Virus record (IMG/VR): IMGVR_UViG_3300037311_000345
Location: 1-31,770 of that record
DNA length: 31,770 bases
Direction: 5' to 3' (one strand)
DNA from: a virus
Taxonomy: Duplodnaviria; Caudoviricetes
Shown: positions 2,150 to 14,330 of the stretch, piece by piece
Layout of the letters: each line of letters begins with the position of its first letter
Numbering within the stretch: the first letter of the stretch is position 1
The notes under the pieces: generated by a model
Told to the model about the DNA's origin: nothing
Seen by the model: the letters and a program-made list of their open reading frames with translations, nothing else
Databases searched by the model: none
Program-made: the position numbers and the translations under genes

Positions 2150-2344
2150 ATGACTCCAATCCAAACTAACCACCCAACCCAACGCGTGAAGGATACAAAA
2201 GGCGACTTGCGAAAGCAAGTCGGTCTGAGTCTTGAAAAGATGAAGACGATACCCTTTTGTAGCCTGACCTTTCTTTACTTACCCGTAAAGATAGTATCTA
2301 ATGTAGAGAGTAGTAAAGAAAGGACACGCCCAGAAGAAGGCTCC
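2150..2344 (+). ncRNA. Structured repeat copy 1 (C-rich leader + Flavo-1-like multi-stem element)
   Basis: GCGTG/CACGC closing stem; TACAAAAGG/CCTTTTGTA; CGACTTGC-GAAA-GCAAGTCG; CCTTTCTTTACT/AGTAAAGAAAGG; ends ACACGCCC..GGCTCC. The Flavo-1 resemblance is from recall of the motif, not a search. Confidence 0.7.
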
Positions 2345-5300
2345 GAATATACAGACTATGAGAGTGGAGCGTATTTTAGCTCAACCACTAAGATAGTAAA
2401 GAATCCGGAGGGAGGAGAGATACGAGCTACAGAGTCTGTGGACGCACTGGGAAGAAGTGTGAGAAAAGAAAGCCCAGGGATAGAGAATGCAAAGATAGTA
2501 GAGACCACAGAATACAATGCAAAAGGGCAAGTAGTAAAGAAATCGAATCCGTATTTAGAAGGGAAAGAGAGTCCGGTGTATACTGTAAGCGAGTATGATG
2601 AGGTAGATGGAAATGTAACCAAGATTACCTATCCTGATGGAAGTTATGCGATTCCCACAGTAACAGGATTCAATGAGAAAGTAGAAGTGTATTCTGCGAG
2701 TGGAGAATTACTCACCACGAATGAGACTATCAAGAATGATAAGGGACTGGTATTAGAGAGAAGATTCAATGGAAAGAGTATACAGTATTTTTATGATGTG
2801 ACTGGGAAAGTAACTAAGATACGAGATGCAGAGAATGGAGAAACAGTCACTAGTTATGATAAGGCAGGAAGAAAGATTTCACACACAGACTCTAACTCTG
2901 GCACAACCCTTTACAATTATGATAGTAGTGGGAATATAAAGAGTCAGAAGGATGCGAGAAACATCACAACAAGTTTTGTGTATGATGAGTTAAATAGACC
3001 TACCTCCATACGTTTTAGTAACTCAGAGAAAGAGATACTGATGCAATACGATAGTGGGGAGTATGCCAAAGGTAGACTAACCAGAGTTACAGATGAGGCA
3101 GGAGTATTGGAATACAAGTATGATGTAAAGGGGAATCTAGTTTTGGAAAGGAGACAAATAGATGATAAGACAGTATTTTTAAAGAAAGAATATGATTTAT
3201 TAAATCGTTTGAATTCTATGACGTATCCTGATGGAACAAAATTGTATTATCACTATGCAAGTACGGGTCATTTGTATGAAGTAAAGATGGATACAGCCGA
3301 TAGACAGAGTTTAGGGCATAGTGTAGTAAAGTATAACGCAATAAAATACGAAGGCGATAGTATCAAAATAGATAAGTATACAGGGAATGGAGTTAGAACC
3401 GAGTTTGTATATGATAGAATAAGAAAACACCCAACGAATATGAACTATTACACCAAGAATAATCATTTAGAAAAGCAGATTGAACTCAAGTATGATGCAA
3501 AAGGGAATGTGATTACTTTAAATGATTTATTAAATTCTAATAGAAGTCAAACTTTTGAGTATGATAACCAAAATAGATTATTAAAAGCAAAAGGAAAGTA
3601 TGGAGAGGAAAACTACCAATATACAGATAATGGAAATTTAGTTAAGAAGAATCAATTTACATTATTTTATGAAGATAGTAAACATAGACATGCAGTAACC
3701 AAAGCTTTTTCTCAAAATACAGGTAATATTCATTATGCCTATGATGAAACAGGAAATATGATAAACCGAAATGGAGATGAATTTAAGTATACAGCACAGG
3801 GAAGATTAAAGGAAATTCATTTGAATAGTTCGGATGCAAAGATATACTACACCTATGATGCCTCTGGTAAAAGAATTAAAAAGCACTTACCTAATTCTAA
3901 ACAGACAGTATATACTTTTTTTAATGGATTGTATGAGATAAACCAAAAACTAGGAAGCCCTGAGACTCACACACTTTACATTCGAGGTGTGGGAGATGAA
4001 CTAGTGGCACAATTAACAAGAAGGGACGCTACATTAAAGGGATCTCAGGATTTTGGGTTTTCGGGATTTTGGGAAGAATATAATCAAATGAAATATGCAA
4101 TCCAACAGGTAGCTTTGAGTATATACTCGAAGCTACAGTCAACGGAGGGAGTTCTAAGCTTACTCATTCTATGTTTATCAGTAGGTTATGTATTACTTAC
4201 TCTTAATAATAGCATTACATTCTCGACAGTATTGACTCCCGTAATGCTAGTTGGATTTTTATTTACCAACATCAATTGTGGGAACTTTACATCCAAGAAA
4301 AGAGGGGAAGCACCTTGGCTACTGCTGGTAAGTGGTATAAACCAGAAGACAGAGAGCATAGACCAACCCCAAGGTGGTGGTAGCTCTGGTGGTGGAGGGG
4401 CAAGTCCTTTAGTTCCCCCAACAGGAATGTTTTTTCTGCACCCTGATCATCTCGGTTCTATAAACATGATAACAGATGGTTTTGGAAATGTAATTACCGG
4501 TGGGAATAATGGTGGCAAGAGTTCTATAAACTACAAGCCGTATGGAGAGATCAACAGAACCGACTCATCAGGACCCGACATTACCAAATTCAAATACACT
4601 GGGCAAGAAGAAGACAAAGAGAGTGGGCTACTCTACTACAAAGCTCGATACTATGATCCTGCGATAGGTAGATTCTTGCAAGCTGACAGTGTAGTAATGC
4701 CCGAGAACTTGTATGGCATGAACCGATATATGTATGTGGATGGTAATCCGGTGAAGTATGTGGATCCAAGTGGGAATAGTTTTTTTAAGAATTTTGCAAC
4801 TGCTTTACTAGCACCATTTACACTTCCAACGATTGCGGCTACCGCTATAGGAGCAGCTGGTGCTGCGATTGGTGCAGGTCTTGTAGGAGCCGCTACTGCT
4901 TTAGGAACTGCTGGGATTGCAGCCGGTGCTGGTATAGGGGCAGGACTTGTAGGGGCATCTAGTGCTGTAGCTGGAATGGGATTATTTTCTGCGTTAGATC
5001 CTTATGGGTTTATAGGCTATACAACGGGTGGAATAGGAGGAATCATTAAAAAAGGACAGTGGGATGAAAGGGAAGCACGTTTAAGAAGTCATGAATATCG
5101 TGTAATAGGAATGAAATGGTCAGCAATTATTGGAATTAATTTATGGCTTGGTGCTGGAGGCCTTTCTCCTTTTGCTCAATCAAAATTAGGTACTACGCTA
5201 GCTTCATATATTAGTAAAGGATTTGGATTATCTGAGTCTGCTTCTATGACTGCTGTCACAATAGGAGGTAGTTTTGTAGGTACTTTTCTTGGAAGTTTAG

Positions 5301-5494
5301 CAAGTGAAAATAAGGGTAGTGGTTTATATGACGATACTTGGAATGGACCCTTTAAGGATGCAGGTATTGGTGGACATCATAAAAATAATTTAATGGATAA
5401 TGTCTTCGGTGGTCATGGAGAGAAACAAAGATTATTATATACGATTTTTTATTTTTCACTAATTGAAAAAATAATTAAAAGGGAAAAATTATGA
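2150..5494 (+). CDS. Rhs/YD-repeat protein, 5'-truncated; first ~65 codons come from the structured repeat; Gly/Ala-rich hydrophobic C-terminal domain from 4775
   Basis: Many YD repeats (YFYDVTGKV, TSYDKAGRK, YNYDSSGNI, YTYDASGKR); full Rhs core ending YVDPSG; the CT has a long AxGAAGAAIGAGLVG glycine-zipper-like stretch. Confidence 0.92.
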   Translation: MTPIQTNHPTQRVKDTKGDLRKQVGLSLEKMKTIPFCSLTFLYLPVKIVSNVESSKERTRPEEGSEYTDYESGAYFSSTTKIVKNPEGGEIRATESVDALGRSVRKESPGIENAKIVETTEYNAKGQVVKKSNPYLEGKESPVYTVSEYDEVDGNVTKITYPDGSYAIPTVTGFNEKVEVYSASGELLTTNETIKNDKGLVLERRFNGKSIQYFYDVTGKVTKIRDAENGETVTSYDKAGRKISHTDSNSGTTLYNYDSSGNIKSQKDARNITTSFVYDELNRPTSIRFSNSEKEILMQYDSGEYAKGRLTRVTDEAGVLEYKYDVKGNLVLERRQIDDKTVFLKKEYDLLNRLNSMTYPDGTKLYYHYASTGHLYEVKMDTADRQSLGHSVVKYNAIKYEGDSIKIDKYTGNGVRTEFVYDRIRKHPTNMNYYTKNNHLEKQIELKYDAKGNVITLNDLLNSNRSQTFEYDNQNRLLKAKGKYGEENYQYTDNGNLVKKNQFTLFYEDSKHRHAVTKAFSQNTGNIHYAYDETGNMINRNGDEFKYTAQGRLKEIHLNSSDAKIYYTYDASGKRIKKHLPNSKQTVYTFFNGLYEINQKLGSPETHTLYIRGVGDELVAQLTRRDATLKGSQDFGFSGFWEEYNQMKYAIQQVALSIYSKLQSTEGVLSLLILCLSVGYVLLTLNNSITFSTVLTPVMLVGFLFTNINCGNFTSKKRGEAPWLLLVSGINQKTESIDQPQGGGSSGGGGASPLVPPTGMFFLHPDHLGSINMITDGFGNVITGGNNGGKSSINYKPYGEINRTDSSGPDITKFKYTGQEEDKESGLLYYKARYYDPAIGRFLQADSVVMPENLYGMNRYMYVDGNPVKYVDPSGNSFFKNFATALLAPFTLPTIAATAIGAAGAAIGAGLVGAATALGTAGIAAGAGIGAGLVGASSAVAGMGLFSALDPYGFIGYTTGGIGGIIKKGQWDEREARLRSHEYRVIGMKWSAIIGINLWLGAGGLSPFAQSKLGTTLASYISKGFGLSESASMTAVTIGGSFVGTFLGSLASENKGSGLYDDTWNGPFKDAGIGGHHKNNLMDNVFGGHGEKQRLLYTIFYFSLIEKIIKREKL

Positions 5495-6367: not shown

Positions 6368-6613
6368 ATGAAAAAACTTACATTAATACTAATTTTTATT
6401 CTAATATACTGTGGTAGTGGACCAGCAGAAGATAGAGCTGAGAGAAATTGTAAAAATTCACAATTATCTACTTTAGCAATTATAAATAATGAAAACATAA
6501 GTATTAGGACTAAGCAGTATTGGATATTTTTAGCCAATATAAATTGTCAAAATCAAGAGCATGACTCTCTCATTAACCGATACTATCGTGGTTATGTATT
6601 AGATAAAGAATGA
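6368..6613 (+). CDS. Small orphan lipoprotein (81 aa), immunity-like
   Basis: In-frame ATG inside track ORF 6167..6613; MKKLTLILIFILIYC lipobox; two further Cys about 30 aa apart. Confidence 0.75.
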   Translation: MKKLTLILIFILIYCGSGPAEDRAERNCKNSQLSTLAIINNENISIRTKQYWIFLANINCQNQEHDSLINRYYRGYVLDKE

Positions 6614-6659: not shown

Positions 6660-6845
6660 TTTGGGTTTTCAGGACATAGGATATACGAACGGAATCAAAG
6701 GCATAGAGCGAGGATAAATGTCTATAGCTGTGGTTATGTTCTACAACAAATTCTAAATGAGAGGAATCCCGACGGTAATTCGGAATTTGGATTTGGTTTT
6801 GGAGGAGCTTTAGTATGTAACGATAAATACGGATATAAAGAATGA
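6660..6845 (+). pseudogene. Start-less toxin-tip remnant (RNQRHRA family)
   Basis: Manual translation: FGFSGHRIYERNQRHRARINVYSCGYVLQQILNERNPDGNSEFGFGFGGALVCNDKYGYKE*; homologous to 10486..10776; the stop overlaps the next ATG. Confidence 0.8.
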
Positions 6846-7078
6846 AAAAGAAAATTTTTAAAATCATTATATGTTCCGTATTAATTTGTCAAATAATCAA
6901 ATGCAGTGATAATTCATTTAAAAAAGAAGCCGAAATGAAAACTCTTATTTGTTCTTATCTTTTGTTTGAAACTTTTAAAAATTCGAATCCCAGTTTTGGA
7001 TTAGGTTTTCAGGCAGGTTTGTATTGTATTGATAAATACGGTTATGAAAAAAGTGAATTTTATCCTTTTGTGCAATGA
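6842..7078 (+). CDS. Small partner lipoprotein, paralogue of 10773..11021
   Basis: Signal peptide ending IIKC; shares CSYLLF...KNSN and CIDKYGYE.SEFYPFVQ with 10773..11021. Confidence 0.8.
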   Translation: MKKKIFKIIICSVLICQIIKCSDNSFKKEAEMKTLICSYLLFETFKNSNPSFGLGFQAGLYCIDKYGYEKSEFYPFVQ

Positions 7079-7239
7079 GTGATGATGACAGAATGTATCA
7101 GAGAAATCAAAGGCATAGAGCATTGGTTAGGGGAATGGGGTGCTTGTATACAAGTGAAGGGTTAAACTTTGGTAGTCAATGAGGGCAAACTATTTTTTCA
7201 ATTCAATGTTCAATTGATTATGGAAATAATATTAGGTAA
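7075..7239 (+). pseudogene. Mini tip cassette (RNQRHRA family) with in-frame TGA at 7180
   Basis: Manual translation: MSDDDRMYQRNQRHRALVRGMGCLYTSEGLNFGSQ*GQTIFSIQCSIDYGNNIR*; 5' arm nearly identical to 11018-11073. Confidence 0.75.
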
Positions 7240-7245
7240 AAATGT

Positions 7246-7458
7246 ATGAAAATTATTTTTAATCTTATAATATTTTATTTATTATTTAATTGTGATAATG
7301 AAAAAGTTCGAAACAATATTTTAACTGAAGGTCGTAATTGTATCATATTAGTAGGTATAGTTTCAGAAAATAATAAACTAACGCAAAGACAACAAACTAT
7401 TCTGAATTCATCATGCTTAATTTCAACTAACAATAAATTAGAAAAAACAACCCAATGA
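7246..7458 (+). CDS. Small partner lipoprotein (70 aa)
   Basis: MKIIFNLIIFYLLFNC lipobox; internal Cys pair. Confidence 0.78.
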   Translation: MKIIFNLIIFYLLFNCDNEKVRNNILTEGRNCIILVGIVSENNKLTQRQQTILNSSCLISTNNKLEKTTQ

Positions 7459-7633
7459 CCCCTCCCCAAACTAATCACCCAACCCTACGCGTGAAGGATG
7501 TGGAGGGCACGTAGGGTCAGGTTTTCAACCTGACCGAAGCGTAAGCGTAGCCCGTAGCAGCCTGACGGCATACAGTCGTGAAAAGGTAGTATTGTATACA
7601 AATAGTATGCCGACACGCCCTAGATTAGGCTCC
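7455..7633 (+). ncRNA. Structured repeat, full copy with REP-like GTAGGGTCAGGTT-TTC-AACCTGACC hairpin
   Basis: Leader + GCGTGAAGGATG...GTAGCAGCCTGAC...ACACGCCC...GGCTCC; CGGCATAC/GTATGCCG stem; near-identical to 11484-11662. Confidence 0.72.
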
Positions 7634-8473
7634 GATCCTGTAATAGGTAGATTTCTACAGGCGGACAGTATCGTAATGCCCGAGAATCTGTATGGAATGA
7701 ACCGATATATGTATGTGGATGGTAATCTGGTGAAGTATACGGATCCGAGTGGTCATTACAATGCAAAGAACTTTATGCAAGATGCTGTAACTTATTTAAC
7801 TTTTCAAGCAATAGGGAATAGTAATTCATTAACTGAAAAATTCATGCTATATAAGGCAGGTGTAAAAGAAAGATATAATCATAGGAATGAAAAAGGAAGT
7901 AGCTTTTGGAGATCAGATGTAGGGGGATTTTTTAAAACATTCAGTCTTTTAAATTGGGTAGGTTATTCATATGCAGCCCTGAATTATACAGTTGGAAGAA
8001 TACTTGCACCTATAACTAAGAAAAATCCTCAAATAAAGAAAGTGAAAGGGGGTTACGTAGTAACCAACGGTCCTTTAGTTGCTTCTGGTATTTCTTTAGG
8101 GCAATTTGCTGTTATAAACGATGATAATGAAGCCACTATAAGGCATGAAGCCGCCCATATCGAGCAATATAATGAATGGGGAGAAAGTGTCTATCTAGGA
8201 AGAACAGCAAGTGGTCCTTTTAAAAATTTATTTGGAGGAAAGACTAACTGGGCAGAAAACAATGCAGATAATCGTGCTGGTACTTGGAGTTATAGTAGTG
8301 GAACTGTTGATAATTTGATAGATATTACTTCTGCGATAACAGTATTGGCAATATTTAAGAGAAATGCATCACCTCAAGGAGAACAAAGAAGTCAAGCACA
8401 GGCAATTGTTGATCAATCTTTTAGAGACTTAGGTTTAGCTTTATTTTTAGAAGGACTTGGCTATGTACCATAA
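7634..8473 (+). CDS. Orphan Rhs C-terminal cassette with HEXXH zinc-metallopeptidase-like domain (probably silent; track ORF 7592..8473 starts inside the repeat)
   Basis: Begins at [11 protein letters not shown]...YTDPSG; the CT contains GISLG...[12 protein letters not shown]...NWAENNAD. Confidence 0.82.
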
Positions 8474-8729
8474 AATTTCAATACTACTGTTACTTTTATT
8501 ACAATTAAACTGTGGACTCAATAGATACAGTGATTATGAAATATGTGAAAAAAGAGCTAAAGAAAAAGCTTTATTGAATGATTTATTATATTATGATCTT
8601 TTCTTTAAAAGGAATGTTGAAGTTACATCTGATGTTATAGGTCTTTATTTTGTATTTCAAACTATTACTGATTTATATTTAAAGTCTTGTAAGCAAGCTG
8701 CAGATGAAGGCAAACCATTACCTAACTGA
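8463..8729 (+). CDS. Partner lipoprotein (88 aa)
   Basis: ATG overlaps the toxin end (GGCTATGTACCATAA); LLLLLQLNC lipobox; Cys pair. Confidence 0.8.
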
Positions 8730-8740
8730 TTGCGACTCAA

Positions 8741-8968
8741 ATGAAAATTTTATTTGGAGGAAAGACTAACTGGGCAGAAAACAATGCAGATAATCGTGCT
8801 AGTACTTGGAGTTATGATGGAAGAAAAATAGTAAATGGATTAGTAAACTTTTCAGAAATAGTTTTATTTATAAGTATAGTTAGTAATACAAATAGACAAG
8901 ATATTGTAAAACCCTTTATTGAATATCAGATTGCTTTAATTCTACAGCGACAAGGCTATGTACCATAA
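8741..8968 (+). CDS. Alternative terminal tip for the metallopeptidase-like CT (second-level cassette)
   Basis: [21 protein letters not shown] is shared with 8226-8293 at DNA level; then a different ~45 aa; then the same GYVP end. Confidence 0.8.
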   Translation: MKILFGGKTNWAENNADNRASTWSYDGRKIVNGLVNFSEIVLFISIVSNTNRQDIVKPFIEYQIALILQRQGYVP

Positions 8969-9218
8969 AAAATTGTTATATATATTTATATCTTTTTTAA
9001 TATTTGCTAATTGCCAAAATCCATTTACTGTTGAGAAAGAGATTCAGAAGTGTAAAAATGAGAAAAAAATAAAAACCAATTTCTATTTGGGATTGATTTT
9101 GAATATACAACCCAAGAAAGAGATTTCAGAATTCGATTTTTTTGCAATTTATAGTATTTTAGATGGATTAGATGCTTCTGAAAATCAGTGTATCAGAGCT
9201 GCTAGGGATGGAAGATGA
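8958..9218 (+). CDS. Partner lipoprotein (86 aa)
   Basis: Same MYHK start overlap as 8463; FLIFANC lipobox; same Cys pattern as 8463..8729. Confidence 0.8.
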   Translation: MYHKKLLYIFISFLIFANCQNPFTVEKEIQKCKNEKKIKTNFYLGLILNIQPKKEISEFDFFAIYSILDGLDASENQCIRAARDGR

Positions 9219-9224
9219 TTTATA

Positions 9225-9394
9225 CTCCCCAAACTAACCACCCAACCCTACGCATGAAGGTATTCGAGCGACCCAAATAAGGGAAGAATGGGCTTTTGGT
9301 TGCCAGAGGCAAAACCAAAAGTTAGGAAAAGGCGTTAAGCGAAAGCTTAACGGTCTGAATCTTGAAAAGGAGAAGACGATACCCTCCTATCCTT
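9225..9394 (+). ncRNA. Structured repeat, extended variant lacking the 3' stem
   Basis: Leader CTCCCCAAACTAACCACCCAACCCTAC; GCTTTTGGT/ACCAAAAGT; CGTTAAGC-GAAA-GCTTAACG; GTCTGAATCTTGAAAAGGAGAAGAC. Confidence 0.7.
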
Positions 9395-9754
9395 CTAGGT
9401 AATTGTCTATTTGCTACTTCACTCTATGAATTTAGAGCGAGAGGAGGAGAAGAGAAAATGGATGAAGCAATGGAAGGAACAGGATTAGGAATAAATGTAG
9501 CTGATTCGTTTAATTTGTTAGAAGAAGGTTCACCTTTAGGGGGATTAGCTCATCCATGTGTAGGAATAGCAATGTTTATTATGGGTAGAATTGTTAAATC
9601 AGGTGGTCGAATTCATAATCGGAATCAAAATCATAGGGCAAAAGTGAATTTGTTAGGATGCATATATTTAATTACTAATTCTAGCTCAAACGTTCAATCC
9701 GTGTGGTTAGGTTCAGCTGCTTGTGCTTTAAATTTTGGATTCAAAAATGACTAA
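9395..9754 (+). CDS. Toxin-tip remnant (RNQNHRA family); possible start ATG 9458 with AGGAGG upstream
   Basis: KSGGRIHNRNQNHRAKV is homologous to KSGHRIYERNQRHRARI; terminal Cys pair. Confidence 0.65.
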   Translation, partial: LGNCLFATSLYEFRARGGEEKMDEAMEGTGLGINVADSFNLLEEGSPLGGLAHPCVGIAMFIMGRIVKSGGRIHNRNQNHRAKVNLLGCIYLITNSSSNVQSVWLGSAACALNFGFKND

Positions 9755-9956
9755 ATCAAACTTATTTGTGCTAATATTAATACTCTATACTCTTATAATG
9801 AATTGTTCAATAGTTAGTAAATCTGATGATGAGATAAATCGAAGAAAACTAATAGAAAGTAATTTACTAAGTACATTAATTGCTAGAACTCCACAAGAAG
9901 CAGCTTTAATTGGTGTACTTTGTGGTTTTCGATATATTGATAGTCAAAATGAATGA
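9747..9956 (+). CDS. Small partner lipoprotein
   Basis: Overlaps the tip stop; LILYTLIMNC lipobox. Confidence 0.75.
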   Translation: MTKSNLFVLILILYTLIMNCSIVSKSDDEINRRKLIESNLLSTLIARTPQEAALIGVLCGFRYIDSQNE

Positions 9957-10025
9957 AGAACAGTAAATTAAATCATATTACTACGAGTTTAGTTGCTCAT
10001 TATCAATGAATTGAATAGTAATTAT

Positions 10026-10247
10026 ATGAAAAGTTTTATTTATTTTTTTATCTGTTTATCAACATTAATAATTTGTAATAAAAGTAATAATAGCAAAGAG
10101 TTGAATAAAAGTATTCACTTTTTAAAGTTAAGTTACAACTTAACGAAAACAGAAAAGCCGAGTGACGAGTTTTTATTATATTCTCTTTTTTGTTTAGATA
10201 GAATGTCAAAAGAAATCGAAGAGAGTAAAGAATGGTATGAGAGATAG
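10026..10247 (+). CDS. Small orphan lipoprotein-like protein
   Basis: In-frame ATG in track ORF 9993..10247; MKSFIYFFICLSTLIIC. Confidence 0.68.
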   Translation: MKSFIYFFICLSTLIICNKSNNSKELNKSIHFLKLSYNLTKTEKPSDEFLLYSLFCLDRMSKEIEESKEWYER

Positions 10248-10260
10248 AAAAAGTTTACAA

Positions 10261-10447
10261 CTCCCCAAACTAATCACCCAACACAATGCGTGAAGGATGC
10301 AGAGGACAATCTGCGAAAGCAGATTGGTCTGAATTGTGAAGCAATGAAGACGGGACTCCGTAGCAGCCTGACCTTTCTTTACTTACCCGTAAAGATAGTA
10401 TCTATTGTAGAGAGTAGTAAAGAAAGGACACGCCCAAAGGAAGGCTC
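10261..10447 (+). ncRNA. Structured repeat, full copy (3' stem as in copy 1)
   Basis: CAATCTGC-GAAA-GCAGATTG; AGCCTGACCTTTCTTTACTTACCCGTAAAG...AGTAAAGAAAGGACACGCCC is nearly identical to 2261-2331. Confidence 0.72.
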
Positions 10448-10485
10448 TAAGTTTGGTTTTCAGGATTTCGGGATATTAGGTTTTT

Positions 10486-10776
10486 GTGGTAGTGGAGTAT
10501 AAATTATTTAGAATAGGAGTAGATGGTTTGATGAATGCTGACAAGACTAGGCAGTATCGTAATGCTTTTGCAATCTTTGTAAGTTTGCAAATTATGAAAT
10601 CAGGACATAGGATATACGAACGGAATCAAAGGCATAGGGCGAGGATAGAACAAGGAAGTTGTGCTTATCTATTATTCCAAGGTTTAAAAAGTTCTAATCT
10701 TGATAGTGATACAAGATCTGGAGCTTCGTTTGGAGGAGCTTTATTATGTAACGATAAATACGGATATAAAGGATGA
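10486..10776 (+). CDS. Toxin-tip remnant (RNQRHRA family), no convincing start
   Basis: KSGHRIYERNQRHRARIEQGSCAYLLFQ...LCNDKYGYKG; ATGA overlap with the next gene. Confidence 0.7.
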   Translation: MVVEYKLFRIGVDGLMNADKTRQYRNAFAIFVSLQIMKSGHRIYERNQRHRARIEQGSCAYLLFQGLKSSNLDSDTRSGASFGGALLCNDKYGYKG

Positions 10777-11021
10777 AAATGAAAATAATCAAATTTCTAT
10801 TAATTTCTTTTTTTATAGTTCAACAAAACTATTGTAGCGACATGGATGAGAAAAAAAAAGCCAGAGAAAATACTTTTGCTTGTTCATATCTTTTGTTTCA
10901 AATTCTAAAGAATTCAAACATTGATATTGATACAAGATCTGGAGCTTCGTTTAGAGGGGGTTTTTTATGCATAGATAAATACGGTTATGAAAGAAGCGAA
11001 TTTTATCCTTTTGTGCAATGA
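10773..11021 (+). CDS. Small partner lipoprotein, paralogue of 6842..7078
   Basis: Signal peptide ending QQNYC; shared C-terminus with 6842..7078. Confidence 0.8.
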   Translation: MKMKIIKFLLISFFIVQQNYCSDMDEKKKARENTFACSYLLFQILKNSNIDIDTRSGASFRGGFLCIDKYGYERSEFYPFVQ

Positions 11022-11185
11022 GTGATAGTGACAGAATGTATCAGAGAAATCAAAGGCATAGAGCATTGGTTAGTCTAGCGAATTGTGTAACTGTCACAGA
11101 TTTCATCAATACTGGAAATTCAAGAGCAGCTTCAATTAAAGCTCTTGGTTGTAGCCTAAATTTTTTTCAGGCAGTAAAGGATTAA
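11018..11185 (+). CDS. Mini tip cassette, 55 aa (below ORF-track cutoff)
   Basis: Manual translation: MSDSDRMYQRNQRHRALVSLANCVTVTDFINTGNSRAASIKALGCSLNFFQAVKD*; ATGA coupling to the upstream gene. Confidence 0.75.
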   Translation: MSDSDRMYQRNQRHRALVSLANCVTVTDFINTGNSRAASIKALGCSLNFFQAVKD

Positions 11186-11200
11186 GAGATACTAAGGCCA

Positions 11201-11422
11201 ATGATCAAAATTTACTTCAAATTTTGTATAATTAGCTTCTTAATTTTTATTTTTAATTGTCAAAAAGAAACTAGGATAAACAAAGCTAAAGAAGAATTAC
11301 TTTTGTGTTCTTTAATAATCGATACTATTTCTACTCAGTCAAGAGACTCGAGTATTGGAGTTGGCTATTGTGGTATTAGAGCTGGAGAACAGATTCAAAA
11401 AGCTAACGACTACTACTGGTAG
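11201..11422 (+). CDS. Small partner lipoprotein (73 aa)
   Basis: FLIFIFNC lipobox; internal Cys pair. Confidence 0.8.
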   Translation: MIKIYFKFCIISFLIFIFNCQKETRINKAKEELLLCSLIIDTISTQSRDSSIGVGYCGIRAGEQIQKANDYYW

Positions 11423-11662: not shown

Positions 11663-12458
11663 GATCCTGTATTGGGAAGATTCTTACAAGCGGACAGTAT
11701 CGTAATGCCTGAGAATGAATCACTATATGTATGTGGATGGAAATCCGGTGAAGTATACGGATCCAAGTGGGAATCGATTATCAACATCACAAGGTTGGAT
11801 GTTACTAGGTTATTTAGCCGGACCTCAAGTAGGATTAAAACCAGAGGATGGTTTAAAATGGGGTTATACAATAGGAAGGAGAATGACTATTAATGAAAAA
11901 AAAGAGAAAAAAATATCTCAAGAAAGAAATATGTTATCTCCGTTAAGTGGTCTAGTAAAACCACAGTACGATGTTTATCGTCCAGTATTTACAAAAGATA
12001 TAAAAAAAGGATTAAATAATGAAATAAAATGGGGATTATTGGGTTTCATGTTAAATGGAGAAGAAGGTGCTACTTGGGGTTTTATTTATGGAACATCTCA
12101 AAATAATCGAAAATTACAAAGCAGAAAACGCAATAATGCTAAAAATATTGAGATAGGGATTCATATTGCTTTAGTATTTACTGGTGCATATATAGGATCA
12201 TCAATCGGTGGTCGTTTGGCAGAAAAAATAGCAAATGGATTTATAGGGGGAATAATCGGAGGTGCAATAGATGAATTGCTTTCAGATCCTATTGAAACTA
12301 TTTCAGCACAGTTAGCAGGTTATGATGAAGAAAAGTATAAAGAACAACAAATTAGAGAGAGAATTTGTTTAGCATCATTTGTTAATCATGTAAGTTCGAA
12401 AAAAGACACAGTCAATGATTTTTGGTGTGTGTATGATGGATTTACACCTAAATTATGA
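11663..12458 (+). pseudogene. Orphan Rhs C-terminal cassette; 11-nt deletion frameshifts the core arm at ~11716; CT frame intact (ORF 11715..12458)
   Basis: GAGAAT-GAATCAC here versus GAGAAT[CTGTATGGAAT]GAACCG at 7682; then [16 protein letters not shown] and a hydrophobic CT related to the first Rhs CT. Confidence 0.82.
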
Positions 12459-13282
12459 TAATGAAATTATTAGTTTTACTTTTGTTATATTTTTCAACTT
12501 TTAATATTTCTTCTAAAGAAGTAACTATATCAAAAAGTTATTCTTTGGGTCTAGGTATAACTAGTATAGAATCAAATATTAACCTACAAAGTTTATATTA
12601 TAACAATCAAAGTATATATAAATTTAATACTTTTTATACGATTGATCTGTCATACAAACTAAAAGAAAGTAATCTAAGTGATTATAATTATTCTCTATAT
12701 TTAGGAATAAAGTATTTTCAACCTGTTAATGATAAGTATAGTGAGATTCGAAATTTTACTTTAATAGAACCATATTATTTTGAAAGAAAAGTGGGAAGCA
12801 GAAAGGAAGTCTACTTCTTGTTTCATTTGACTGAATTGTTTAAAAACTATAACAAAAATTTAGTATTCAGTTTAGGAATGAGTATTGGACAATCTGAGTC
12901 AATTTCAATTGCCTATAAAAGAGTTTTTTTAGATTCTTTTCTACTAAATTCTCAACAATTAAATTCAGTGAGTTACCTTGGAGTTCCTATAACTGTTCCA
13001 GAAAGTGTCTCTTTGTTTTTTAAACCAAGAGTCTATTATTCATATAATTTAGGTGCAAGTTATAAAGTAAGTGATTTTAGATTTGGTATAGATATTATTT
13101 TAGGAAACTATATTGAAAAGCAAAAAGCAGATATCAATATAAATACTAGCTATTTGCATTATAGTAAAAATCAACCTTATACTATCTATGAATTATTTCT
13201 AAGAGAAAGAATTATTTTAAATGCTTTAGAATATGATGAAAAATTTAGAGGGATTCGTCTATACTTAACCTATGAATTCTAA
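12455..13282 (+). CDS. Partner protein, signal peptide, possible outer-membrane beta-barrel
   Basis: ATGA overlap; N-terminal hydrophobic signal without lipobox Cys; alternating aromatic strands and terminal IRLYLTYEF (C-terminal Phe). Confidence 0.6.
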   Translation: MIMKLLVLLLLYFSTFNISSKEVTISKSYSLGLGITSIESNINLQSLYYNNQSIYKFNTFYTIDLSYKLKESNLSDYNYSLYLGIKYFQPVNDKYSEIRNFTLIEPYYFERKVGSRKEVYFLFHLTELFKNYNKNLVFSLGMSIGQSESISIAYKRVFLDSFLLNSQQLNSVSYLGVPITVPESVSLFFKPRVYYSYNLGASYKVSDFRFGIDIILGNYIEKQKADININTSYLHYSKNQPYTIYELFLRERIILNALEYDEKFRGIRLYLTYEF

Positions 13283-13574
13283 TCATATCTTACAAAGAGA
13301 AGACTCAGCTATGAATTTACAAGATGAATTCAATCGAATCAAGTATGCAATCCAACAGGTAGCCTTAAGTATATACTCGAAGCTACAATCAACCGAGGGA
13401 ATCGTAACCCTACTCCTGACTACAATACTCGTAGGCTATGGTATGCTAACACTGAATGGTAGTATCAATATGCATACAGTATTGACACCCATTATGCTAG
13501 TTGGGTTTTTATTTACCAACATCAACTGTGGGAACTTCACTTCCAAGAAAAGAGGGGCACCTTGGCTTTTATAG
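13272..13574 (+). pseudogene. Rhs internal fragment (hydrophobic hairpin + NINC segment), mosaic of the two Rhs alleles
   Basis: KYAIQQVALSIYSKLQSTEG matches the second Rhs; IVTLLL.TILVGYGMLTLNGSINMHTVLTPIML matches the first. Confidence 0.85.
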
Positions 13575-13613: not shown

Positions 13614-14330
13614 ATGAAATATTATTTGATAGTGATTTTAATATATAACTGCTCAGTAAAACATAATGAAATAGTTTCAAAACAAGTTTCAAAAATTCAT
13701 AATTTAAAAATTGAACTAGTAGCTGAAGATGAGATTCTCTTTGAAAAAATAACTGTAAAAAGTTCAAAAAAAATACCAATCAAATCTTATGAAGAAAAAT
13801 TAGTTTCAGGAAATCCCCTTCCTTTATTATTTATGATAGAGGAACAAAGTGATTTAGATATATATCAACCTGATTCAGTTGATTATTTCTATAATGTTTC
13901 ATCGAATAAGGTAATTTCTTTAAATAAAAACATTGAAGAGAATTATTTAGTTATAGAATATATTAACGATAAGTTTTTTCATTTCGATATAAATTTATAT
14001 GAGACTAAAAATTTCAAAGTATTCTTTGGATTTTCAAGTGACAATAAAGATAACTTAAACACAAAACCTTTTGAAATTATTGAGAATAATGATTCTTGTA
14101 TTGTAAAATTCAGAGATGATATATCTCTCAAAACAGGTAATTATGGATTTTGTCCTAAGCTCAACTTAAGAGACAATGTTGTAACTATAAAACTGATTTT
14201 TTCAAAAAAAGAACAAATAAATTTATCTACTAGACTAATAAAATATTTTTATCCTGGAATATTTTTTTTGGGACCATTTACTAAAGGTGGAGCATATTAC
14301 AAAAGAAATTTTATTCCAAACAGCGTTTAA
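13614..14330 (+). CDS. Orphan lipoprotein (238 aa), immunity-like
   Basis: In-frame ATG in track ORF 13596..14330; MKYYLIVILIYNC lipobox; very AT-rich. Confidence 0.7.
   Translation: MKYYLIVILIYNCSVKHNEIVSKQVSKIHNLKIELVAEDEILFEKITVKSSKKIPIKSYEEKLVSGNPLPLLFMIEEQSDLDIYQPDSVDYFYNVSSNKVISLNKNIEENYLVIEYINDKFFHFDINLYETKNFKVFFGFSSDNKDNLNTKPFEIIENNDSCIVKFRDDISLKTGNYGFCPKLNLRDNVVTIKLIFSKKEQINLSTRLIKYFYPGIFFLGPFTKGGAYYKRNFIPNSV

Follow-up and report, generated by a model that had tools for sequence, protein, structure and literature searches.

Pairwise likeness between toxin ends and their downstream predicted lipoproteins in one rare Rhs family

How a new toxin specificity and the immunity to it can arise together without killing the host is a long-standing puzzle, and it is raised by the window analyzed here, the complete virus record IMGVR_UViG_3300037311_000345 of 31,770 bases. 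Up to about position 14330, its plus strand carries an Rhs array in which the variable C-terminal ends of toxins (tips) are each followed by a tightly linked small gene (the partner). A first-pass annotation of positions 6660 to 11422 had claimed that tips and their adjacent partners, predicted lipoproteins, are homologous and co-vary pair by pair. This was borne out for one C-terminal family, in which it was replicated outside the window, and not as a general property of such loci. Within one rare Rhs family, the matching of tip and partner is real and replicated and has apparently not been described before; it is narrower than first claimed.

Likeness of tip and partner in the window and elsewhere

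Five orphan tips of the window, starting at 6660, 7075, 9395, 10486, and 11018 on the plus strand, carry the motif R-x-Y/H-x-R-N-Q-x-H-R and, after it, a predicted helical hairpin bounded by Cys. The motif and the two Cys are invariant in 22 aligned sequences of this family, and the matched variable segment corresponds to the last ~45 residues of the toxin. The local alignment score of each pair was compared with those of 2000 composition-preserving shuffles. The strongest match was found between tip 4 (10486..10776; Cys codons 10660 and 10747) and partner 4 (10773..11021, 82 residues; hairpin Cys codons 10881 and 10968), with a score of 154 and z of 29.8. Tip 1 (6660..6845), which has no start codon and consists of an R-I-Y-x-R-N-Q-x-H-R helix and the hairpin (Cys codons 6729 and 6816), matches partner 1 (6842..7078, 78 residues; hairpin Cys codons 6950 and 7025) with a score of 84 and z of 14.4. 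Tip 2 (7075..7239; Cys codons 7141 and 7207), interrupted by an in-frame TGA at 7180-7182, matches partner 2 (7246..7458, 70 residues; z 5.5, p 0.001), and a weak match joins tip 5 (11018..11185; Cys codons 11084 and 11150) to partner 5 (11201..11422, 73 residues; z 3.4, p 0.009). The exception is tip 3 (9395..9754), the longest remnant of the family, with one hydrophobic segment and Cys codons 9659 and 9722. Its partner (9747..9956) lacks the first hairpin Cys, ranks 11th of 11 for this tip, and scores at chance level (z −0.2).

The remaining pairs of the window showed no such likeness. An orphan Rhs core end (7592..8473; TIGR03696) continues into a C-terminal domain that carries an HExxH motif and belongs to a different family, and the lipoprotein that follows it (8463..8729) does not match it significantly: the pair 7634(7757)/8463 scores at chance level (z 0.2), FKRN alone being aligned. 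The same is true of the orphan tip of the HExxH type at 8741..8968, which shares a 72-nucleotide repeat with 8222-8293, and its partner lipoprotein at 8958..9218 (z −0.5). The window also has three pairs with large partners (3/1535, 2150/5491, and 11715/12455), and none of them showed any likeness. The peptides quoted in the first-pass annotation are all present where it had placed them, and the resemblance of tips to adjacent partners stands for four of its seven pairs (z 3.4 to 29.8). The match that it had claimed for 7634/8463 and the weaker ones for 8741/8958 and 9395/9747 are lost. The likeness is real for one toxin family and not for every pair.

Searches with a profile of the tips recovered six further pairs in four other genomes, which brings the total to 11. 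Of 190 genomes of the class, 4 carry the toxin family, as do 4 of the 114 genomes of the family Leptospiraceae. Among 1.84 billion proteins searched, there were 19 matches, of which 6 had already been collected, 1 was a spurious repeat protein, and 12 were new tips that lack genomic context; in one additional member, the contig breaks off and the tip is missing. Complete toxin domains are present in 3 of the 11 pairs (L001c, L016c, and L046c), each in frame after an Rhs core. A scan of viral contigs gave no relative, a family-specific metagenome scan gave no member, and 11 metagenome loci collected through their cores gave no additional self-matching pair. None of the tips or partners scanned matched a family in Pfam, NCBIfam, or PHROGs.

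Over the 11 pairs, cognate combinations scored higher than swapped ones (permutation p 1.5e-5 with the local score and 5e-6 with a Cys-anchored score). The excess persisted when the four strongest pairs were left out (p 0.03 and 0.0008, respectively) and in the six pairs from outside the window alone (p 0.0028). Eight of the 11 cognates, including 6660/6842 and 7075/7246, outscored all of 75 unrelated small partners, and for 11018/11201 three of these 75 scored equally high. The spacing between the two Cys co-varies between tip and partner, with rho 0.91 over few length classes (n = 10; 9747, with one hairpin Cys, was excluded). The excess of cognate over non-cognate identity peaks 9 to 16 residues before the second Cys (0.39 versus 0.09), with 0.17 versus 0.08 before the first Cys and 0.35 versus 0.12 after the second. 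Moreover, a profile built from the 12 outside tips placed the 11 partners of the family ahead of the 75 unrelated small partners (p 7e-4), which indicates homology of tips and partners at the family level.

Rhs C-terminal domains and their downstream genes were also gathered from related loci regardless of likeness, giving 171 distinct pairs, of which 142 were kept after filters for signal, spacing, and 80% redundancy. A z above 4 was reached by 3 of 68 pairs with small partners, two of these three belonging to the self-matching family, and by none of 74 pairs with large partners. No cognate excess appeared in the 12 toxin clusters with at least four members in an enlarged set of 166 pairs (best p 0.06). 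Matching as a general property of Leptospiraceae Rhs proteins was therefore rejected, no cluster having p below 0.05. The HExxH-type pairs were likewise rejected as self-matching (15 pairs, including 7634 and 8741 of the window; p 0.18 to 0.28). Their C-terminal domain, at 7757-8473 in the window, has no Pfam match and may be a metallopeptidase; the motif was found on 14 core-bearing pairs of the collected set.

The variable hairpin and its predicted structure

The toxins L001c and L016c are 96% identical over 207 residues and 40% identical in the hairpin, and their partners are 24% identical. The DNA of tips 7075 and 11018 is common up to 7130 and 11073, just before the first Cys, and unrelated beyond; in tips 6660 and 10486, the DNA is common on either side of the hairpin and different inside it. 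The exchanged variable unit is therefore the hairpin together with its partner. Variation is confined to this unit, and the points of exchange lie a short way upstream of the first Cys. The DNA of the conserved helix (6669..6716), repeated at 7081, 9599, 10600, and 11024 (repeat family D4), is a likely exchange site just upstream of the hairpin. In tips 7075 and 11018 (regions 7016-7130 and 10959-11073), an ATG overlaps the stop codon of the preceding partner, and these two tips could be translated as short peptides.

The helical hairpin proposed for both tip and partner in the first-pass annotation is predicted in AlphaFold2 models of two non-cognate sequences, the L016c toxin domain and the window partner 10773. 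At the end of the former, a loop joins a long helix to a return helix, with a predicted local distance difference test (pLDDT) score of 79 to 91 over residues 191-250 and below 50 for most of the body; the latter forms a helix-loop-helix with a mean pLDDT of 71.5. The predicted complex of tip 10486 with partner 10773 scored 0.01, which speaks neither for nor against binding. Foldseek gave no match at E ≤ 0.001, VIA-align gave generic hairpin matches only (best Z 7.5), and the ESM Atlas gave no usable match for the toxin domain or the partner. One or two hydrophobic 19-mers (mean 1.3 to 2.0) occur in each of 9 of 10 family sequences. From signal-plus-Cys patterns recognized by eye, we infer a lipid anchor on the partners, those of 6842 and 10773 having atypical lipoboxes, and a disulfide between the two hairpin Cys.

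Copying, selection, and a possible role in immunity

These properties suggest that the lipoprotein may be an immunity decoy that pairs with the matching hairpin of a likely membrane-active toxin, a proposal that fits the evidence best and for which we consider the chances evenly balanced. A reading that goes further has a probability slightly short of even: the locus would encode a self-matching polymorphic toxin system in which a copy of the terminal hairpin, anchored by a lipid, serves as immunity protein, with specificity read like with like and with gene conversion writing specificity and antidote together. In the preferred account, the conserved, Gly-rich hydrophobic body of the toxin would damage membranes, and the hairpin, closed by a disulfide between its two Cys outside the cytoplasm, would serve as tag of self-association and specificity. 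The lipid-anchored copy, having no hydrophobic body, would join the toxin assembly and block it. Occasional conversion between the neighboring genes would yield a new tip and its matching partner at a single stroke, after which selection would maintain the match.

Several observations weigh against this account. Two of the 11 pairs, 9395/9747 and L001c, have no match, and the L001c toxin has its Rhs core and is uninterrupted in its toxin domain. The cognate partner ranks first among the 11 in 4 cases with the local score and in 6 with the anchored score. Nor is the adjacent partner strictly the one resembled above all others, as the first-pass annotation had it: tip 6660 scores 111 with the non-adjacent partner 10773 and 84 with its own, 6842, whose residues its loop follows. 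When L046c and L016c, which were noticed through their score, are dropped, the four remaining outside pairs give p 0.083 (2 of 24 permutations), and the permutation p values as a whole overstate independence because the pairs are mutually related. All five window tips are truncated remnants. Domain and structure searches assigned neither family nor fold to the putatively toxic body. Finally, other Leptospiraceae families use similar Cys-bounded lipoproteins without detectable homology to the toxin, so homology is not needed for such pairing.

The pair 10486/10773 shows that DNA copying alone can produce a match. A tract of 25 nucleotides in the loop of tip 4 (10707..10731) is identical to 10928..10952 in its partner, a likely case of gene conversion; the chance of eight identical codons is 6e-4, as calculated post hoc. 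In the DNA of 6660, 6842, 10486, and 10773, eight contiguous informative sites group the cognates, seven flanking sites group tips with tips, and two are crossed (runs p 0.002, for sites that are not independent). Identical residues use the same codon 87 times in total versus 73 expected. Copying of this kind, which the self-matching account of the first-pass annotation had omitted, explains part of the likeness. It is also the basis of the strongest alternative, according to which the partner is an ordinary immunity protein derived from a duplicated last hairpin, and the likeness is a by-product of short-range conversion that protection does not need. The two pairs without a match fit this alternative, as does the resemblance of the first helix of tip 6660 (6690-6750) to the C terminus of the upstream lipoprotein 6368 (6560-6610; z 5.4, with p 0.0015 before correction for ~120 comparisons), which may itself reflect chance or the copying of a patch from a neighbor.

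We nevertheless regard a mere by-product as unlikely, given how the match behaves beyond the copied tract. In the loop of pair L001o, 15 of 16 residues are identical despite saturated synonymous sites, with 7 synonymous differences over 11.5 sites and 1 non-synonymous difference over 36.5 sites. Outside the tract, pair 10486 uses the same codon in only 9 of 19 identical residues, and the longest identical tract is at most 11 nucleotides in 10 of the 11 cognate pairs. The matched loop is, moreover, the part that varies most between pairs. Because the protein match outlasts the DNA match, selection for the match is indicated, and the codon patterns point to selection maintaining it alongside occasional copying.

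A dedicated copying device was considered and rejected. Diversity-generating retroelements combine a template repeat and a variable repeat, with mismatches at template adenines, and a reverse transcriptase nearby. Mismatches at A numbered 5 to 6 of 19, 9 to 16 of 46, and 7 to 9 of 26 here, which is about the base frequency. Since the mismatches are not adenine specific, this is not such a retroelement, and no reverse transcriptase was found among the 45 window open reading frames (ORFs) scanned.

Less probable than a conversion by-product is a code for kin recognition or activation, in which the Rhs tip would read the lipoprotein as a surface tag or receptor by pairing like with like, the cargo perhaps being an adhesion or signaling module. 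It would accommodate the lack of a recognizable toxic domain and the confinement of variation to a tag on a constant body, and matched motifs of adjacent genes in BASS systems are described as activating effectors rather than blocking them (10.1101/2020.01.06.895854, in the portions available). Against this alternative, orphan cassettes with decayed tips and intact partners fit the collected immunity known from contact-dependent inhibition (CDI) and Rhs systems, for which the accessible text of PMC3150448 describes orphan toxin-immunity modules. The stand-alone partners fit it likewise: two orphan small predicted lipoproteins of the window, at 6368..6613, without a tip of its own, and at 10026..10247, and the L147 cassette beside a transposase. 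Collecting receptors for a toxin would, by comparison, be costly. In addition, PT8, a polymorphic toxin of Leptospiraceae from this or another family, is reported as antimicrobial and membrane permeabilizing in the available part of its description, lysates having permeabilized vesicles (10.1101/2021.10.19.465003).

The matched tip-partner pair at L147 (1266-1707, minus strand) lies by itself outside any Rhs array, flanked on one side by a transposase-like ORF and on the other by an HtpX-like gene (names assigned by eye), a setting that suggests mobilization as an immunity cassette. In L054 and L068, lipoproteins resembling 6368 are found downstream of another toxin family.

In the most improbable alternative, hairpin and lipoprotein do not bind each other but have a common binding site on a third surface, which would be a host envelope target or the toxin body, and protection comes from prior occupancy of that site by the lipoprotein. 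This would explain the likeness of the whole hairpin, including the residues after the second Cys, without symmetric contact, but the toxin body is near-constant while the hairpins differ, and a fixed target would favor cross-protection and conserved hairpins rather than hypervariable pairwise codes.

Known systems and the surrounding array

The array can be compared with several known systems, as these are described in the available portions of the sources cited. Rhs and CDI arrays share with it a core ending in DPxG, a variable C-terminal domain, and a coupled downstream gene, as well as start-less orphan tips and exchange at a conserved DNA stretch (PMC3150448, PMC3482391). They differ in that the exchanged unit here can be just the last hairpin plus partner, and in that the partner is homologous to the hairpin. 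In the accessible text of PMC3482391, immunity by lipoproteins is called exceptional, with one family, Imm65, and Leptospira is not mentioned. Tse5-CT, an Rhs-encapsulated C-terminal fragment that acts on membranes (PMC10684867), offers a model for the toxic step of the preferred account, and no sequence or fold link between it and the window family was found.

For the proposed action, the closest parallel is given by the Wtf drivers of fission yeast, where the poison Wtf4 is neutralized by an antidote of matched sequence through homotypic co-assembly (10.1101/2020.02.05.935874). Those systems are eukaryotic, with one gene giving two products that share their C-terminal sequence and with vacuolar trafficking, whereas here two separate ORFs are kept matched. 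The likeness to the window family is one of logic only, and no homology is claimed.

The entericidins EcnA and EcnB are paralogues. The available accounts propose an adjacent small lipoprotein as antidote to a related membrane-active peptide (PMC7296081, PMC5105897). Both are lipoproteins outside any polymorphic array, and the antidote role has been questioned, whereas here the toxin side is an Rhs C-terminal domain. No small partner of the window matched a Pfam or NCBIfam family, entericidin included. BASS amyloid signaling likewise involves adjacent, often overlapping genes with a short, pairwise-matched homologous motif; these are beta-amyloid motifs on NLR and Bell proteins that activate effectors, unlike the predicted helical, Cys-bounded segments described here, and no NLR domain was found among the scanned ORFs. 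Searches of an open-access library, in which subscription journals are largely missing, gave no polymorphic toxin with an immunity protein homologous to its own tip. If the self-matching account is correct, one short conversion event would solve the problem of co-origin, and the array would carry the traces of such an event. It would also provide a natural set of orthogonal, ~40-residue helical hairpins pairing like with like by a code readable from sequence, and would represent a bacterial equivalent of the poison-antidote logic seen in Wtf.

The window shows the features of an Rhs polymorphic toxin-immunity locus, with core and YD repeats ending in DPxG, variable tips with linked small genes, and orphan cassettes in between. 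Cores lie at 3-1538, 2150-5494, 7592-8473, and 11715-12458, and window ORFs match TIGR03696 (Rhs-associated core) and PF05593 (RHS/YD repeats). The largest, at 2150..5494, encodes an N-terminally truncated Rhs protein of 1114 residues with a core and a C-terminal domain of another family (PF05593; TIGR03696, E 6e-24). Full-length relatives have ~2300 to 2450 residues, and one of them (L004) combines SpvB, FG-GAP, and RHS domains, as expected of a TcB-TcC-like shell; the N-terminal parts are missing from the window Rhs genes. The nearest cores, with 77 to 83% identity, come from uncultured Leptospirales and Leptospiraceae genomes, and an Rhs core is present in 84 of the 114 Leptospiraceae genomes; by this sequence affinity, the array is of a Leptospiraceae host type. 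A related core occurs on 88 Leptospira plasmid records.

On the minus strand, a structural module of a contractile-tailed phage (14375..31349; capsid, sheath, tape measure, baseplate, and tail fiber by Pfam and PHROGs) converges on the array. The two lie next to each other in the record, and the array may be phage cargo or host flank. Hairpin and partner of five family pairs are each spanned by contigs of run X1, possibly the source sample, with zero differing letters, and 6712-6895 is covered equally exactly by a contig from a different study; misassembly of the region is not obvious.

In L128 (G034:C1:798600-818500) and its relatives, the main differences among seven near-identical toxin domains lie in a short hydrophobic stretch inside the domain, and the lipoprotein partners, which have no detectable homology to the toxins, differ in a Cys-bounded loop. 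This group thus combines a constant body with a variable tag without self-matching.

A repeat of ~46 nucleotides follows partner genes at cassette junctions of the window (2161, 6621, 7466, 9229, 10265, and 11495). Since run X1 depth is ~200 to 320 at the junction stretches versus ~18 in unique parts, it is likely a dispersed host repeat, which may help to shuffle cassettes. The Rhs proteins also contain an insert of ~130 residues before the core (window ~200-500 and 4080-4420, with a fragment at 13272-13574). Its two hydrophobic helices, lipobox-like Cys motif, and Gly-rich linker make a membrane anchor or a processing site possible.

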